Source: Escherichia phage naam
Reading direction: 5' to 3' (one strand)
Sequence record: MN850630.1
DNA: 64,000 nt
Below the pieces are notes generated by a model. It was not told where the DNA came from. It searched no databases and saw nothing but the letters and a program-made list of their open reading frames with translations. Of the stretch, positions 52,361-57,371 are shown piece after piece. Each line of letters begins with the position of its first letter. Within the stretch, counting starts at the first letter, position 1. A program made the translations under genes and the position numbers.

Positions 52361-52711
52361 TTACTGCAACAGTTTTTCAATAGCCGCTTCCATGCTGCTT
52401 GCAACAGCCTGAACTCGGATATTCATCTCTTCTTGGTGGATCAGCTCCTTAAGCTCTTTAATGGTAAATTCTTTAGAGAAACCTTCCACCATAATCTTGT
52501 GCAAGGCTTCTTGCGTGTCTACTTGCAAGAACTTTTCCAGTTTGTTGGCAGAGGCTTCTAAATCAGCCCGAATACGAGGGTCATCTGTGCGATTCAGCAT
52601 TAGGCGTAAGCCATCAAGATTAGTAGAAATAGCATCTGCATGTTGAGTAACTAACCGTGGCAAAATGAGATCTACAAACTTATTAGCCAAATCGATACGT
52701 TCTTGTGTCAC
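52361..52711 (-). CDS. hypothetical protein
   Basis: GTG start overlapping the stop of the upstream micro-ORF (GTGA); 116 aa. Confidence 0.5.
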   Translation of the reverse strand: MTQERIDLANKFVDLILPRLVTQHADAISTNLDGLRLMLNRTDDPRIRADLEASANKLEKFLQVDTQEALHKIMVEGFSKEFTIKELKELIHQEEMNIRVQAVASSMEAAIEKLLQ

Positions 52712-52821
52712 TGTTGCACCCCCTCTTCATCTTCATGATGTTTCTTTTCACGCTTGTGTTTTTTCTTAAGCTCAAGCGCAATCTCTTTCTTGTACGCCTT
52801 CTTCAAGGCTTTTTTAGCCAT
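52708..52821 (-). CDS. small lysine-rich basic peptide (37 aa; not in ORF track)
   Basis: ATG after GAGGAGG; MAKKALKKAYKKEIALELKKKHKREKKHHEDEEGVQQ. Confidence 0.5.
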   Translation of the reverse strand: MAKKALKKAYKKEIALELKKKHKREKKHHEDEEGVQQ

Positions 52822-52883
52822 TTGGCACCTCCTCTGCTTTCATTACGACAATTATAACCGACTTAACAAAGCTTTGTCAACGA

Positions 52884-53357
52884 TTAGTCAACCTGAACCC
52901 AACCATCTGCTACCTTTTTAAACATTCTTTGGTTATCACTGCCTCTAAAGGGTTTTTTGGTGGGGTTATCTTTTTCGTACTTACCGTCCATAATGTAATC
53001 AACACTATCTTTAATGTAATCGGGGACTTCTTCAAACAAATACCCTGTGTACACCCAGATAGTTTTTGTGTTGCCGAAGTGTTCACGGATAGCGCGAATG
53101 ATCGAGTACATACCATCAATATTGTAAGGCGCTAAAGGTTCGCCACCGCATAATGTAACGCCAGTAATGTGTTTCGGCTCTATAGAGTGAAGTATACTCT
53201 CAATAGTGTCATTTGTTAACGGTTCCCCTTTAGCTGGTGACCAAACACTTTTGTTTTGGCAACCGACGCAGTGATGTGGGCAACCAGAACAGAACACCGT
53301 TGTCCTAATGCCTGGGCCGTCAACCATGCTACACTCTATAATATTAACAACATTCAT
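52884..53357 (-). CDS. nrdG: anaerobic ribonucleotide reductase activating protein (radical SAM)
   Basis: CSGCPHHCVGC cysteine cluster near the N-terminus; 157 aa; same operon as nrdD. Confidence 0.85.
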   Translation of the reverse strand: MNVVNIIECSMVDGPGIRTTVFCSGCPHHCVGCQNKSVWSPAKGEPLTNDTIESILHSIEPKHITGVTLCGGEPLAPYNIDGMYSIIRAIREHFGNTKTIWVYTGYLFEEVPDYIKDSVDYIMDGKYEKDNPTKKPFRGSDNQRMFKKVADGWVQVD

Positions 53358-53590
53358 TCCTTATCCTCTTTTAGGTAAGGATATTCAGGCCCACAATAAG
53401 CTCTATCCAAGAAAACAGCTTCTTCCCCTCTGGAATCAGTAGATCTATAATACCCATCACCATGGTAACTAACGAACCAGTGGCACCCATCATCGCTTTC
53501 TACTGTTGTGGCTCTGTCCGAATGAAAGATAATTTCGTAATCCTTACCGAATGTAAACCATCTGTTAGCTTTTACACAGACACCTATCAT
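53354..53590 (-). CDS. hypothetical protein
   Basis: ATGA coupling to nrdG; AGAAGAGAGG RBS; 78 aa. Confidence 0.55.
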   Translation of the reverse strand: MIGVCVKANRWFTFGKDYEIIFHSDRATTVESDDGCHWFVSYHGDGYYRSTDSRGEEAVFLDRAYCGPEYPYLKEDKE

Positions 53591-53741
53591 AAGGAACCTC
53601 TCTTCTGTGATGTGCTTCTATTCAAGATAAACCTATAAAAGTCCATTTGATGAAGCCGTATAACTTTTTATACTTACGCTTCAGTGCTAACAATTTTATC
53701 TTGATTTTCTTGATAGATTTCCGCATTTCGACCCCTTATGC

Positions 53742-53858
53742 TTATAAGTACTCCGCATCGCATTCAGGGCAATGCCAAATAAAATCGTCCAGTGCCTTGC
53801 ACCAACGAAGATTGCAACGACAACCACACTTGCAAATTTTATAAATACCTGATGACAT
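53742..53858 (-). CDS. small cysteine-rich zinc-ribbon-like peptide (38 aa; not in ORF track)
   Basis: ATG after TAAGGAGGT; MSSGIYKICKCGCRCNLRWCKALDDFIWHCPECDAEYL, codon-verified by hand. Confidence 0.5.
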   Translation of the reverse strand: MSSGIYKICKCGCRCNLRWCKALDDFIWHCPECDAEYL

Positions 53859-53910
53859 ACTGCACCTCCTTAGTTAATAGCATGTTTAAGATATGCATAT
53901 CTTTCTACAA

Positions 53911-54843
53911 TCATTTACCACAAATCTTCTTGTATACCTCTTCTACCGTGTCAAACACTTCAGGCCTGTAGTAGAAAAACTCAGTGCTACCGTCAAATTT
54001 TACAGGAAAGTTTATTTTATACTTGCTCAAGGCCTTATGCACAGATTTTTCTAAATCTACCATGTTTTGAGTTGATCCGCTCCATGTTTTTACTACGTGA
54101 AGAGTGTGGACACCTGCGCCAGATTTACGAGCACTGTTAAGCACCTCATTTTTCCTCCTGTGCATTTTAACGCATACACCGATTTTCATAAGTGTTGGCA
54201 CTTCTAAGTCATCAACCATAATGTAGAGTTTACCGTACTCATGAGATAAGAATCCATTTTGTGCGCATTTACAGCAGCCACGACCACTTTTTAGGTTATT
54301 AGGTTTAGCAGACCACTTATACCCACAAATTTTGCACCTACATTGCACTTTTGTGTTATCATTGGCAATTTTCTCTAATATTTCTATGTCTGGGTTGGCT
54401 TTGTGGATAATTGCAGCGTGCTCCTTATGGGTTAACGCTTGACTTTGCCCACGTCTTAAGTCATAGCACTCTGGGCAGCCGTTTCTTTGGTATAAGTGGT
54501 TTTCAGGGTATTGTTCAAACACACCGTGTTCAGGGCAAACAATTTTTACAGGCGTTCTCATGTTCGCATATTTGACTAATGAGTAATCGTACTTGTCCCC
54601 ATGAACAGCCATAGCCTCTTTTATGAACTCTTCAGTGTTCTTTTTCGCTGACCCACCACACCTTGGACAACCATGATTCTTGAAAGCATGTGCCACAGGG
54701 GTTTGCCAGAACTCACCGTGCTCAGGACAAATTATACACACAGGTGTCTTGTTGTTTTTATACTCCACTTTGAAGTAATCATATTTGTCACCATGTATAG
54801 TCTGAGCTTTTTCTATAAACTCTTCGGTTGTTAGTCTTCTCAT
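53911..54843 (-). CDS. putative homing-endonuclease-like protein (three zinc-ribbon repeats plus C-terminal T5orf172/GIY-YIG-like domain)
   Basis: Three repeats of CPEHG.F.Q.P..H.....GCP.CG; C-terminal LYIMVDD...KIGV...R...EFFYY fits the T5orf172 pattern; own promoter and upstream terminator; lies between nrdD and nrdG. Confidence 0.65.
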   Translation of the reverse strand: MRRLTTEEFIEKAQTIHGDKYDYFKVEYKNNKTPVCIICPEHGEFWQTPVAHAFKNHGCPRCGGSAKKNTEEFIKEAMAVHGDKYDYSLVKYANMRTPVKIVCPEHGVFEQYPENHLYQRNGCPECYDLRRGQSQALTHKEHAAIIHKANPDIEILEKIANDNTKVQCRCKICGYKWSAKPNNLKSGRGCCKCAQNGFLSHEYGKLYIMVDDLEVPTLMKIGVCVKMHRRKNEVLNSARKSGAGVHTLHVVKTWSGSTQNMVDLEKSVHKALSKYKINFPVKFDGSTEFFYYRPEVFDTVEEVYKKICGK

Positions 54844-54881
54844 TACCAGACCAGACCCTTCCGCTATTCACTTTATATTGC

Positions 54882-54910
54882 ATACTATAGAAAAGAGGAA
54901 TAGAAGTCAA
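54882..54910 (-). promoter_or_regulatory. sigma70-like promoter for the endonuclease-like gene
   Basis: Minus strand TTGACT, 17-bp spacer, TAGTAT. Confidence 0.5.
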
Positions 54911-54946
54911 TAAAAACAAAAAAAAAATGAGAGCATCCTTGCTCTC
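54911..54946 (-). terminator. rho-independent terminator after nrdD
   Basis: Stem gagagca / tgctctc followed on the minus strand by a long T-tract (TTTTTTTTTTGTTTTT). Confidence 0.7.
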
Positions 54947-54957
54947 CACCTCTTTCC

Positions 54958-57096
54958 TTATTTACTCAACGGACAACAGTCTACATTCCCAACATGTTTA
55001 ACACGTTCGATAACCTCTGCTTGTTTACCTGTGTTATACGGCCTACTGTTCGGGCTGGAGAGATAGCCAGACACTCTTCGGATCACTGAGATATATTGTT
55101 CATCGTGGCATCCGCACGCAGGGCAGCAGAACCCTTTAGCTGTTGCACTGAACTCACCAGAGAAACCACACTTGAGACATTTATCCACAGGTTGGTTAAT
55201 ACCAAAATACATAATGTGTTTATACCCGAAGTCAACAAGAGCCTCTAAAGCATCAAGGTTGTTTTTCAGGTTAGGTGTCTCTACGTATCCGATGTTGCCA
55301 CCGGAGGAGATCATAGCAAAACCTTCCTCATACTCCCACTTATCAAAAGGAGAGCTATTGATCCATACTGGCTGATGGAAACTGTTGGTGAGATATTCAT
55401 GCTCGTGCTTTAACACTTCTGGATATTCACGATCCAGACAGGTTGCAGCTTTATAGCATAGACTCTCAGAAGGAGTGCCGTACAAGCTAAATGCTAGTCT
55501 ACTTTCCTTCTTGTATCGCTCACAAGCATCTCTCATGTGCTGAAGGATTCCAAGAGCTAAAGCCTTGTCACCTTCTCTGCCCAAAATCTGACAGGTTTCA
55601 TACACACCAATGTACCCAATGCTGATGGAAGCGTACCCGTCATAGAAGAGTTTATCAATACTTTCTTCAGGATCCAGGCGAGCAAGAGCGCCTTCACACC
55701 ACATGATGGGGTTCTGCCCTGACTTTGTTCCTTTTAGACGGTTAACCCTTACAAGGTGAGCCTCGTATGCAAGATCCAAGTATTCGTCAAGAACTGCAAA
55801 GAAATCAACACCTTCCGTCTTAGCTTTTGCCGCAATCATTGGCAGGTTAAGGCTAACAACGCCTAAGTTAAATCTGCCAAGGTATTTCTCCTCGCCTGTT
55901 TCCAAGTCATTGTATTTGCTAAGAAAACTCCGGCAACCCATGCTCGTTACTTTGCCATCTGTCGAGCCTGTCACTTTTCTATTTAGTGGTACAGATACGA
56001 AGTCAGGATAGATACGTTCTGCACAGCATTCCAGAGCTAATCGTTTCAAATCATAGTTAGGATCTCCAGGGTTCATGTTGACACCCTCTTCTAGGAAGAA
56101 CAGCACTTTAGGGAACACAGGTGTGATCCGTTCTTCACCAAGACCCATTTTGTGGACTTTCAAGTAATTTTTGGTAATCATTCTACCAAAGACCGAGGTA
56201 TCCAGTCCTAAACTTAATGTGATGAATGGAGTTTGCCCGTTGACAGAAGTTAACGTATTGATTTGATAGAGCAAAGTCTGCATGCTGTCAAATACGTCTT
56301 TATCTGTCATTTGCATTGCAACAGTCTCAGCATCTGGCAACCAATGTTCCTGGCAAAATTTAAGGTTCTTCTCATAGGTCGCTTCAGCATACTGTGCCAG
56401 ATAATGATCAATATGGCTCATAGTCTGACCCCCATATTGAGCACTAGCTACTGCACTAGAGATTTGGCTAAGGATTGTTGTTGCAACCCCTATTGACTTA
56501 GGCTTACTGACATGGGCGTTACCAATGTTGAATCCGTTTTCCAACATATCTGGATAATTTACCAAACAACAGTTTGTTAACGGACTGATCAAGTAGTCAA
56601 GATCATGCACATGGATGAAGCCTCTATTGTGCTCTTCTGAGACACGGTCTGGCAGGATCTGTGTTGATGCAAGGTGTTTGCTAAGAATACCTGCAAGCAG
56701 GTCGCGATGAGTGTGTACATGATTAGTAGGCTTATTTGCGTTTTCTTTTGTAAATTCATCACAAGTTCGATCCAAGAAGCCACTAATATCTGCAAGCAGT
56801 TTTCCACCTGCCTCTCTGTTATTATCTCTTGTCTGTCTATACTGGATGTATTCTCTGGCTGCACATTTTAAACCCATATCCATAAGAGCATCTTCAACAA
56901 GGATATGGATATTTTTTACAGAGATCGTGCACTGGTCGGTTGGTAGATTGTTAGCAACAACTTCATTAACCGCGCAGGCGATCCGGTAAGCTTCTTCTTC
57001 AGTATGCCCAGACTCAAGTAAGGCGGACTCTGCCGCCTTGATCACCTTAATTCCGTTATAGAACTCTTCTCTACCGTCCCGTTTTACAACTTTCAC
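54958..57096 (-). CDS. nrdD: anaerobic ribonucleoside-triphosphate reductase (class III)
   Basis: N-terminal ATP-cone (VVKRDGREEFYNGIKVIKA); C-terminal zinc ribbon CLKCGF...CCPACGC; glycyl-radical-type RRVSGYLSSP; 712 aa. Confidence 0.85.
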   Translation of the reverse strand: MKVVKRDGREEFYNGIKVIKAAESALLESGHTEEEAYRIACAVNEVVANNLPTDQCTISVKNIHILVEDALMDMGLKCAAREYIQYRQTRDNNREAGGKLLADISGFLDRTCDEFTKENANKPTNHVHTHRDLLAGILSKHLASTQILPDRVSEEHNRGFIHVHDLDYLISPLTNCCLVNYPDMLENGFNIGNAHVSKPKSIGVATTILSQISSAVASAQYGGQTMSHIDHYLAQYAEATYEKNLKFCQEHWLPDAETVAMQMTDKDVFDSMQTLLYQINTLTSVNGQTPFITLSLGLDTSVFGRMITKNYLKVHKMGLGEERITPVFPKVLFFLEEGVNMNPGDPNYDLKRLALECCAERIYPDFVSVPLNRKVTGSTDGKVTSMGCRSFLSKYNDLETGEEKYLGRFNLGVVSLNLPMIAAKAKTEGVDFFAVLDEYLDLAYEAHLVRVNRLKGTKSGQNPIMWCEGALARLDPEESIDKLFYDGYASISIGYIGVYETCQILGREGDKALALGILQHMRDACERYKKESRLAFSLYGTPSESLCYKAATCLDREYPEVLKHEHEYLTNSFHQPVWINSSPFDKWEYEEGFAMISSGGNIGYVETPNLKNNLDALEALVDFGYKHIMYFGINQPVDKCLKCGFSGEFSATAKGFCCPACGCHDEQYISVIRRVSGYLSSPNSRPYNTGKQAEVIERVKHVGNVDCCPLSK

Positions 57097-57371
57097 TTTT
57101 TCTCTCCAAAACCATTCTTAACAAAAGAGATGAAATCGTCGGCACCGCCTATATGGACACTGTCAAGATCGCTTTCTAAGAAGATCTGCGGCAACGTTCT
57201 GGGGACAATTGGACTGCACTTCTCAATAAGCTCTTCTTTTGTGTAGCCCTCGCCAAGTGTCTTATATACAAAAGGCAGACCTTTGCTGATTGCAAATTCT
57301 TTTGCTCTGACACAATGTGGGCAGTTATCCTTACCGTAAATGATGATGAAAAAAGATTTTTCGCAGCTCAT
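57093..57371 (-). CDS. glutaredoxin-like redoxin (NrdH/Grx-type)
   Basis: Active site CPHC in IYGKDNCPHCVRAKEF; 92 aa; between nrdB and nrdD. Confidence 0.7.
   Translation of the reverse strand: MSCEKSFFIIIYGKDNCPHCVRAKEFAISKGLPFVYKTLGEGYTKEELIEKCSPIVPRTLPQIFLESDLDSVHIGGADDFISFVKNGFGEKK

Follow-up and report, generated by a model that had tools for sequence, protein, structure and literature searches.

The 64,000-nucleotide stretch of Escherichia phage naam analyzed here (accession number MN850630.1; referred to below as the window) carries, between the anaerobic ribonucleotide reductase genes nrdD and nrdG, a 310-amino-acid (aa) gene that is probably a free-standing homing endonuclease gene (HEG) belonging to the GIY-YIG superfamily (T5orf172 branch). 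It is likely to move as a small cassette, in which the endonuclease gene is preceded by a recoded nrdD 3' end and by a terminator and a promoter.

The nrdG-nrdD region of naam (52800..57200) matches 121 records in total, every one of them rV5-like (Vequintavirus), and is 99.4 to 99.7% identical to the same region of Escherichia phages nomine, A51.2, naswa, PMBT16, and inoa. To judge from these matches, naam is itself a Vequintavirus, an rV5-like coliphage. All counts given below are counts of records among the 121 matches, a few of which are GenBank/RefSeq duplicates. A search with the 1119 bp of the inserted segment finds the full cassette at 98.4% identity or more in 18 of the 121 records, whereas a search with the empty junction of rV5 finds nrdD and a downstream 38-aa open reading frame (ORF) uninterrupted in at least 92; other T5orf172 variants occupy the same site in about eight. 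The initial annotation, made from the DNA letters and their ORFs, had taken the gene for a mobile insertion and proposed comparing the nrdD-nrdG junction among relatives. That comparison agrees with it: empty-site alleles are the majority, so the gene is not carried at this position by all relatives.

Borders, flanks, and regulatory elements of the cassette

The features of the cassette are as follows.

53911..54843, minus strand: free-standing T5orf172-family homing-endonuclease-like gene, 310 aa (ORF, Pfam, and PHROG matches)
53876..54994, unstranded: segment without an rV5 counterpart, 1119 bp in place of 67 bp (blastn boundaries and alignments)
54958..55132, minus strand: recoded nrdD 3' end ("W" haplotype), encoding the zinc ribbon at the C terminus, the glycyl-radical motif RRVSGY, and a changed tail, …KHVGNVDCCPLSK
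54919..54946, minus strand: predicted intrinsic terminator after nrdD, with stem GAGAGCA/TGCTCTC, loop AGGA, and T10
54882..54910, minus strand: sigma-70-type promoter-like site TTGACT-17-TAGTAT, matching at 9 of 12 positions, 38 nt upstream of the endonuclease ATG
53888..53903, unstranded: perfect 16-nt palindrome AAGATATGCATATCTT, 8 nt past the endonuclease stop codon

The 67 bp of rV5 that the cassette replaces (locus L001, 1576..1642) consist of the nrdD stop codon and a short spacer ahead of the 38-aa ORF. In naam, 114 nt separate the nrdD stop codon from the start of the endonuclease gene, which is not part of an intron or intein; its place between nrdD and nrdG, as first described, is confirmed by Pfam matches of both flanking genes. 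Several other kinds of insertion were considered and rejected. A transposon-type insertion is not indicated, as the borders at 53876 and 54994 have neither inverted terminal repeats nor a target-site duplication. No Rfam family matches positions 52700..57300 at an E value of 1 or less, which argues against an intron or a noncoding RNA. A group I intron-encoded endonuclease of the I-TevI/II/III type does not fit an nrdD gene that is uninterrupted (712 aa) and matches no intron model. Base composition is of no use as a mark of the cassette, whose GC content (0.37 to 0.44) is not set apart from that of its flanks (0.42 to 0.46).

The cassette is found on at least two local backgrounds, with an rV5-type or a murica-type nrdG side, each with or without an intron in nrdD. 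Seven carriers have the rV5-type right flank, which includes a 34-aa and a 78-aa ORF and an nrdG allele starting MNVVNIIE…; in the 11 with the murica-type flank, I29 among them, the nrdG allele that abuts the 38-aa ORF is a different one, starting MNIVGYTE…. Some of the carriers also have an HNH-endonuclease intron in nrdD. In PMBT16 (locus L014, 1150..1380; ~54800..54810 in naam), an 11-bp frameshifting deletion near codons 12 to 15 splits the gene into two annotated ORFs. This copy is evidently decaying, a stage that such elements are expected to go through.

Outside the genus, homologs of the 310-aa protein are encoded between nrdD and nrdG of two uncultured phages from Logan assemblies: P0009 (76% identity) on a 141-kb contig of SRR25011148 (L015) and P0091 (59% identity) on a 135-kb contig of SRR12268564 (L018). 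In this region, identity to Vequintaviruses is as low as ~74% for the first contig and ~69% for the second. Both share the layout nrdD-terminator-promoter-endonuclease-nrdG, and their NrdD proteins end in …KHVGNVDCCPL(S/N)R. Instead of the 38-aa ORF, L015 has a different 52-aa ORF (Pfam DUF8272) and L018 has none.

The initial annotation had ended the insertion short of nrdD. The exchanged segment goes about 175 nt into that gene, to 55132, and alters the C-terminal tail of NrdD. Identity to rV5 is ~96 to 100% over most of nrdD and falls to 76, 64, 70, and 50% in the last four 50-nt intervals before the insertion. Over the 175-nt tract, the W haplotype of naam is 64% identical to the rV5 type ("R"), with 67 differences, mostly synonymous. 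Codons 651 to 700 of nrdD contain 27 synonymous and 7 nonsynonymous differences from rV5, compared to 1 to 9 synonymous ones per 50 codons elsewhere, and the tail changes from …KHYGSCGC in rV5 to …KHVGNVDCCPLSK in naam. At 99% identity or more, the full W tract is confined to the cassette carriers: all 18 have it, and the rest of the phage collection does not.

Partial W tracts are found as well. At the 67 W/R sites of 55132..54958, JEP1 is a W-W-R mosaic; the W-R-R pattern is seen in Murica and HeinrichReichert, both with empty sites, and in nom and SophiaRose, and the R-R-R pattern in WalterGehring, Mangalyan, and ECML-10. The breakpoints are sharp, near 55066 and 55024, and fall within ~110 nt of the insertion site. 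Because the two blocks are 64% identical in genomes that are ~96% identical just upstream, at least one nrdD block must have been imported by recombination. Such clustering of breakpoints is the pattern to be expected from repeated double-strand-break repair. The Murica-type mosaics, with W sequence far from the insertion and R sequence next to it, imply at least two successive exchanges. L015 and L018 were considered as donors of the W tract and rejected, being 68% and 75% identical to it, about the background level; neither haplotype is clearly nearer to these outgroups in DNA. The W tract is the probable location of the endonuclease target in relatives that lack the HEG, and the probable source of self-immunity. 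Recoding is not needed for every variant, however, since the endonuclease genes of WalterGehring, Mangalyan, and ECML-10 adjoin an rV5-type nrdD end.

The terminator and the promoter both lie within the inserted segment. The former, described initially as strong, has a 7-bp G+C-rich stem (54946..54929) followed by T10, and its RNA fold has a free energy of -16.7 kcal/mol (z = -3.7), with none of 200 shuffled sequences as stable. In L015 and L018, the nrdD stop codon is followed by a hairpin with another stem (TGAGCAC/GTGCTCA), in which the pairing is kept, and a T-run. The promoter of these contigs consists of TTGACT, a diverged spacer of exactly 17 nt, and a TAnnnT hexamer (TATGCT or TATTAT), after which comes the endonuclease gene. 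Sites that match the promoter consensus as well as the one in naam number 10 in the region, with 10.2 expected; the naam site is accepted because its position, -35 box, and 17-nt spacing are conserved in L015 and L018. The promoter assigned to the gene in the initial annotation thus stands by its conservation but not by its consensus match, which is at the level of chance. The conserved hairpin pairing and promoter geometry support the view that both predicted elements are functional parts of the cassette.

The empty site of rV5 has no T-run terminator, and the WalterGehring-like variant genes have neither a T-run terminator nor a promoter of the type seen in naam. The rV5 gap does contain a promoter-like element, TTGACA-18-CATATT (10 of 12 positions), so the cassette may have replaced a resident promoter of the 38-aa ORF and nrdG rather than added one.

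In the interval from the Shine-Dalgarno-like AAGGG to the ATG of the endonuclease gene (54844..54866, minus strand), naam has a tandem repeat, TCTGG TCTGG, of which one copy is present in L015 and L018. With the duplication, the AAGGG-ATG spacing is 12 nt instead of ~6 to 7 nt, and the endonuclease might be translated less efficiently. The palindrome AAGATATGCATATCTT occurs once in the window and is weak as an RNA hairpin. It is also found downstream of the JEP1 and ECML-10 variants; in L015 and L018 it is absent, and other hairpins are found there. It could be a protein-binding site.

Domains and allelic variants of the 310-aa protein

The 310-aa protein consists of the following parts.

54652..54843, minus strand: zinc-ribbon module 1, aa 1 to 64 (DUF723/DUF7836), ligands C39, H42, C59, and C62
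54460..54645, minus strand: zinc-ribbon module 2, aa 67 to 128 (best DUF723 stretch, residues 86 to 126), ligands C103, H106, C123, and C126
54259..54438, minus strand: zinc-ribbon module 3, aa 136 to 195 (CapR/DUF4379 type), ligands C170, C173, C190, and C193
53914..54258, minus strand: T5orf172 (GIY-YIG-like) putative nuclease domain, aa 196 to 310 (Pfam T5orf172)

Domain searches recover, above the Pfam cutoffs, both parts of the architecture first proposed, three zinc-ribbon repeats and a C-terminal T5orf172/GIY-YIG-like domain. DUF723 (50.2 bits; cutoff, 20.9), CapR (41.0 bits; cutoff, 24.2), and DUF4379 (39.3 bits; cutoff, 24.5) each match two stretches within residues ~1 to 195. T5orf172 (Pfam ID PF10544; GIY-YIG clan) matches residues 207 to 307 with 33.4 bits against a cutoff of 20, so that a nuclease domain is indeed detected by profile search; MUG113 stays just under its cutoff (20.3 versus 22.3). 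The protein also matches PHROG 681, "endonuclease" (4e-65). It is identical in phages A51.2 and I29, whose GenBank records label it "phage T5, ORF172 domain containing protein".

In a full-length AF2 model (pLDDT, 85.7), three similar modules, each a helix followed by a β-hairpin, precede a compact C-terminal domain. In module 1, the predicted elements are H6-17, E35-39, and E43-47, and C39, C59, and C62 are invariant in the alignment of homologs. In module 2, they are H70-81, E99-103, and E107-111, with C103 and C126 invariant. Module 3 is matched by CapR at residues 157 to 194 and by DUF4379 at residues 150 to 195; here C190 and C193 are invariant, and C170 and C173 nearly so. With profile matches above the cutoffs and all four-ligand sets complete, the CapR, DUF723, and DUF4379 treble-clef modules can be regarded as putative DNA-binding modules.

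The T5orf172 domain models as a GIY-YIG fold (β1-β2-α1-β3-α2-α3), and GIY-YIG proteins in its top 16 matches include I-TevI (4.9), AtGRXS16-N (4.5), PD-T4-3 (4.2), R.Eco29kI (4.0), UvrC (3.4), and T4 EndoII (3.4). Residues Y207, K220, G222, R230, E265, H269, and E288 are invariant among 21 homologs. An alignment with Odn (ICP1 gp88, taken from the ICP1 record) places E265 on E180 of Odn and R230 on R148. The E180A mutation of Odn abolishes cleavage, and E180 has been equated with E75 of I-TevI (PMC8263062). The GIY-YIG fold and the retained catalytic residues are what an active enzyme would show; the activity itself is inferred.

Sequence searches of solved structures with the single protein and with the domain profile give no match, and neither do the defense-system and NCBIfam models. 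An HNH endonuclease of the "mob" type was rejected: no HNH domain is found among the Pfam matches, and PHROG 559, "HNH endonuclease", spans only the zinc-ribbon part (residues 53 to 198). In tblastn searches with the 310-aa protein, at least 1000 records of the phage collection are matched, and the 64-kb window contains no paralog beyond the gene itself. The gene family is also represented away from the nrdD site: SophiaRose carries a second copy upstream of phoH (locus L007, 1..414). The lambdoid phages mEp013 (locus L008, 2510..3046) and mEp021 encode a 178-aa form between a helicase gene and the replication gene O. This form has one zinc ribbon and a T5orf172 domain and is 64% identical to the naam protein over aa 135 to 307.

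At least five different endonuclease alleles are found at the one site after nrdD. Apart from the naam type, they encode proteins of 330 aa (WalterGehring and nom), 386 aa (Mangalyan and SophiaRose), ~400 aa (ECML-10, unannotated), and 311 aa (JEP1). All of them end in a homologous T5orf172 domain, and the number and kind of zinc ribbons differ. WalterGehring bas51_0186 ("putative homing endonuclease") and SOPHIAROSE_117 ("putative GIY-YIG nuclease family protein") have the same site and the same downstream 38-aa ORF; variants of this type are 44 to 52% identical to the naam protein over the whole length, with higher identity C-terminally. Unlike the naam gene, the 330-, 386-, and ~400-aa variants have other zinc-ribbon arrays and follow an rV5-type nrdD end. 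Together with the empty sites, the alleles form a series: an empty rV5 type, an empty half-recoded (Murica) type, and at least five endonuclease variants, one of which has the fully recoded flank and the terminator-promoter unit.

The nrd region around the cassette

All genes of the region are on the minus strand, in the order nrdD, 310-aa ORF, 38-aa ORF, 34-aa ORF, 78-aa ORF, and nrdG. The neighbors of the endonuclease gene are as follows.

54958..57096, minus strand: nrdD, anaerobic ribonucleotide reductase, 712 aa, left flank of the insertion (Pfam NRDD, 4.9e-159; Gly_radical; ATP-cone)
53742..53858, minus strand: resident 38-aa Cys-rich ORF, right border of the insertion, core gene (PHROG 20137, 4e-31)
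53622..53726, minus strand: 34-aa ORF (ORF list)
53354..53590, minus strand: 78-aa ORF, annotated "putative minor capsid protein" (ORF list)
52884..53357, minus strand: nrdG, activase, 157 aa, downstream (Fer4_12, 2e-38; Radical_SAM; PHROG 626)

The initial annotation had assumed that nrdD and nrdG are normally adjacent and had listed the Cys-rich micro-ORF with its strong ribosome-binding site along with the insertion. Direct adjacency is found in no relative: the 38-aa ORF always lies between the two genes in this genus, and rV5-type genomes add the 34-aa and 78-aa ORFs. The micro-ORF itself is real, with a ribosome-binding site, AAGGAGGT, and 8 Cys residues in the sequence MSSGIYKICKCGCRCNLRWCKALDDFIWHCPECDAEYL, but it does not belong to the element. 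All 121 Vequintavirus records have it, whether they carry the endonuclease or not, and no phage of the collection outside these does; to judge by this distribution, it is a resident core gene. Conservation in rV5, WalterGehring, and I29 covers both its ribosome-binding site and its coding sequence, and an alignment with the I29 copy shows 6 synonymous and 2 nonsynonymous substitutions. The rV5 record annotates it as a 75-aa protein (gp109) that starts inside the nrdD end. Since conservation begins only at the ribosome-binding site, the 38-aa form is the likelier one, and the 75-aa annotation is probably too long. Some records call this ORF "ribonucleotide reductase". Since its place next to nrdG is fixed, its product may be a small metal-binding protein that partners with the anaerobic reductase system. 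For annotation purposes, the 310-aa gene is best named a T5orf172-family putative homing endonuclease, and the 38-aa ORF is best kept as a separate core gene.

A second insertion or deletion (indel) lies a few hundred bases from the endonuclease gene (53354..53726, minus strand), where naam and rV5-type genomes have the 34-aa and 78-aa ORFs. These two ORFs are absent from Murica, HeinrichReichert, I29, JEP1, nom, ECML-10, and SophiaRose (loci L003 and L009 to L012), in which the 38-aa ORF overlaps the other nrdG 5' allele (MNIVGYTE… versus MNVVNIIE…).

A further polymorphism lies within nrdD, at ~56236|56237. The gene is uninterrupted there in naam, and an HNH endonuclease insertion of ~800 bp is found in WalterGehring, Mangalyan, JEP1, nomine, navn, and others (loci L004, 3901..4697, L005, and L009). 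A BASEL record annotates such an nrdD gene as a joined coding sequence, i.e., as containing an intron, and the JEP1 gene apparently has two such interruptions. The HNH insertions and the T5orf172 site together make nrdD a hot spot in this genus, with three different mobile endonuclease genes.

Two observations concern the region in general. Directly downstream of nrdG (52851..52880, minus strand) there is a perfect sigma-70 consensus, TTGACA-18-TATAAT (12 of 12 positions), whose counterpart in rV5 is annotated as promoter P118. Roughly 20 GenBank records bear the name "Campylobacter phage" (MG0656xx; listed host, Campylobacter jejuni); by sequence, they are genomes of rV5-like coliphages, 96 to 98% identical to naam over the nrd region. 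These records are probably mislabeled or derived from contaminants of typing-phage stocks.

Proposed homing, its alternatives, and related systems

In the scheme favored here, the three zinc-ribbon modules would bind a long DNA site during mixed infection with a relative that lacks the HEG, most likely in or just past the 3' end of that relative's nrdD, and the C-terminal T5orf172 domain would cut near the bound site. Repair of the break by recombination on the carrier template would then copy the cassette along with the variable nrdD flank, i.e., intronless homing with co-conversion. The carrier itself would escape cutting because 67 of the ~175 positions at the end of its nrdD are changed, with little effect on the protein, because the insertion splits the site, or for both reasons. 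The terminator would end the nrdD transcript, and the promoter would drive the endonuclease gene and probably also the 38-aa ORF and nrdG.

Several points weigh against this scheme. Cleavage, homing, the position of the target, and biased inheritance are inferred only. Gain of the cassette and its replacement by an empty allele both fit the data, and the Murica-type mosaics, with W sequence far from the insertion site and R sequence beside it, need at least two successive events. The W tract may be a hitchhiking foreign flank rather than an immunity determinant. The promoter match alone is no better than chance. Finally, the presence of the same layout in the distant L015 and L018 indicates long residence, which also fits a useful gene that has been retained.

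That last possibility can be put more specifically. The protein might be a domesticated member of the T5orf172 family, kept as a repressor like CapR or as a nuclease against competitors or satellites like Odn of ICP1, and not engaged in homing. Precedents for both roles exist in the family (PMC8096241, PMC8263062), a domain homologous to CapR is present, the ORF is intact and near identical in 17 of the 18 carriers, and the gene has its own conserved terminator-promoter unit in a layout whose occurrence in two distant lineages suggests long retention. Nevertheless, domestication appears unlikely: most close relatives grow well without the gene (at least 92 empty sites), several variants alternate at exactly one site, the recombination tracts of the flank cluster at the insertion, one carrier has a frameshift, and no defense-system model matches the protein. 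Moreover, in a mixed infection a nuclease that cuts competitors and a homing endonuclease are mechanistically the same, so this explanation overlaps with homing.

It is also quite unlikely that the cassette is ancestral and has been lost from most Vequintaviruses by deletion or ordinary homologous recombination, with no part played by the endonuclease. The gene order, the NrdD tail (…KHVGNVDCCPL-), and the regulatory layout shared with L015 and L018 would fit such a history, as would the lack of a clearly nearer nrdD haplotype in DNA comparisons with these contigs, and the second, unrelated indel nearby (the 34-aa and 78-aa ORFs) shows that ordinary mosaicism does occur here. However, the drop from ~96% to 64% identity between the haplotypes over 175 nt calls for at least one imported block, not a local deletion, and the position of the breakpoints within ~110 nt of the insertion, the five or more endonuclease alleles at one site, and the conserved catalytic residues also speak against such a history. 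Less probable still is a decayed remnant, a onetime homing endonuclease that has lost its cutting activity and is not yet deleted. Elements of this kind commonly decay once fixed, PMBT16 has a frameshift, and the 5-nt duplication (TCTGG TCTGG), which lengthens the Shine-Dalgarno-ATG spacing relative to L015 and L018, might lower expression. Against this, the ORF has its full length, neither the zinc ligands nor the seven invariant residues of the nuclease domain show any loss, both structure models are confident, and the promoter and the terminator are conserved.

If a homing endonuclease is accepted, the recoded flank narrows its likely target to about 175 nt of nrdD. A more detailed proposal can be made only tentatively: the alleles might represent a natural series for target choice and self-avoidance by T5orf172 enzymes, in which the naam enzyme would cut the rV5-type sequence encoding the NrdD zinc ribbon and glycyl-radical region, with the 67 mostly silent changes as the immunity determinant. 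If so, this would be the first tractable system in which to demonstrate T5orf172 homing, with phages that infect E. coli K-12. T5orf172 genes are among the commonest endonuclease-like genes of phages and are thought to mark borders of genetic exchange between them. The locus is an ordinary but clean example of the class, with near relatives that have or lack the gene and several variants at one site.

A parallel by position is found in phage T4, where mobC, an HNH endonuclease gene, fills the gap between nrdG and nrdD, and both nrdD and nrdG are listed as targets of seg/mob enzymes (PMC2988022). Free-standing T4 endonucleases cut away from their own insertion sites, with co-conversion of flanking markers and marker exclusion (PMC2988022). 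The lifestyle and genomic niche of mobC, mobE (nrdB/nrdA), SegH, and Hef (PMC2988022) are the same as those proposed for the naam gene, and mobC occupies the equivalent gap. However, mobC and mobE are HNH genes and not homologous to the naam gene, so that the likeness to mobC is one of position and lifestyle only, and several T4 cassettes, including that of mobC, have no promoter of their own, whereas the naam cassette appears to have one. Compared to I-TevI and the Seg proteins, the naam protein has the reverse domain order, with the nuclease at the C terminus; its second motif is K-I-G rather than Y-I-G; it is not intron encoded; and it contains treble-clef zinc ribbons instead of NUMOD or helix-turn-helix modules.

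Among T5orf172 nucleases, only Odn (ICP1 gp88) has been tested biochemically (PMC8263062). Its domain is homologous to that of the naam protein (~17% identity), and its residues Y125, K138, G140, R148, E180, H184, and E202 correspond to Y207, K220, G222, R230, E265, H269, and E288. Unlike the naam protein, Odn has a RepA_N-like DNA-binding domain and no zinc ribbons, and it acts against the PLE satellite and is not a homing element. CapR, encoded by the PLE satellites of Vibrio cholerae (PMC8096241), is represented by the Pfam CapR family, which matches module 3 of the naam protein with 41 bits; CapR is a repressor without a nuclease domain, whereas the nuclease domain of the naam protein is intact.

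The putative T5orf172 HEGs of ICP1, a Vibrio phage, and of other phages (PMC10448857) are built like the naam protein, with an N-terminal CapR/DUF723/DUF4379 array and a C-terminal T5orf172 domain. In the survey of these proteins, 87% had CapR, DUF723, or DUF4379 fingers, often several, and 33% of the T5orf172 neighborhoods contained a ribonucleotide reductase gene; homing was described by the authors as being without experimental verification (PMC10448857). No report of demonstrated T5orf172 homing was found in the later literature that was searched. These HEGs likewise vary in presence between close isolates, lie beside essential genes, and have zinc-finger repeats that are swapped or changed in number (PMC10448857). 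One of them, annotated in ICP1 as "tcgB: putative homing endonuclease", is 32% identical to the naam protein over the zinc-ribbon part in a tblastn comparison. The architecture, the variable presence, the site beside a ribonucleotide reductase gene, and the shuffling of zinc fingers have thus already been described for the class. The naam gene differs from the ICP1 HEGs in belonging to another phage group (Vequintavirus, infecting E. coli), in its site after nrdD, in a two-haplotype mosaic flank that points to where recombination starts, and in having its own terminator-promoter unit. What the naam locus adds are exact borders, a reach of 175 nt into nrdD, the haplotype mosaic, the allelic series, a conserved terminator-promoter unit, and the finding that the 38-aa ORF lies outside the element.

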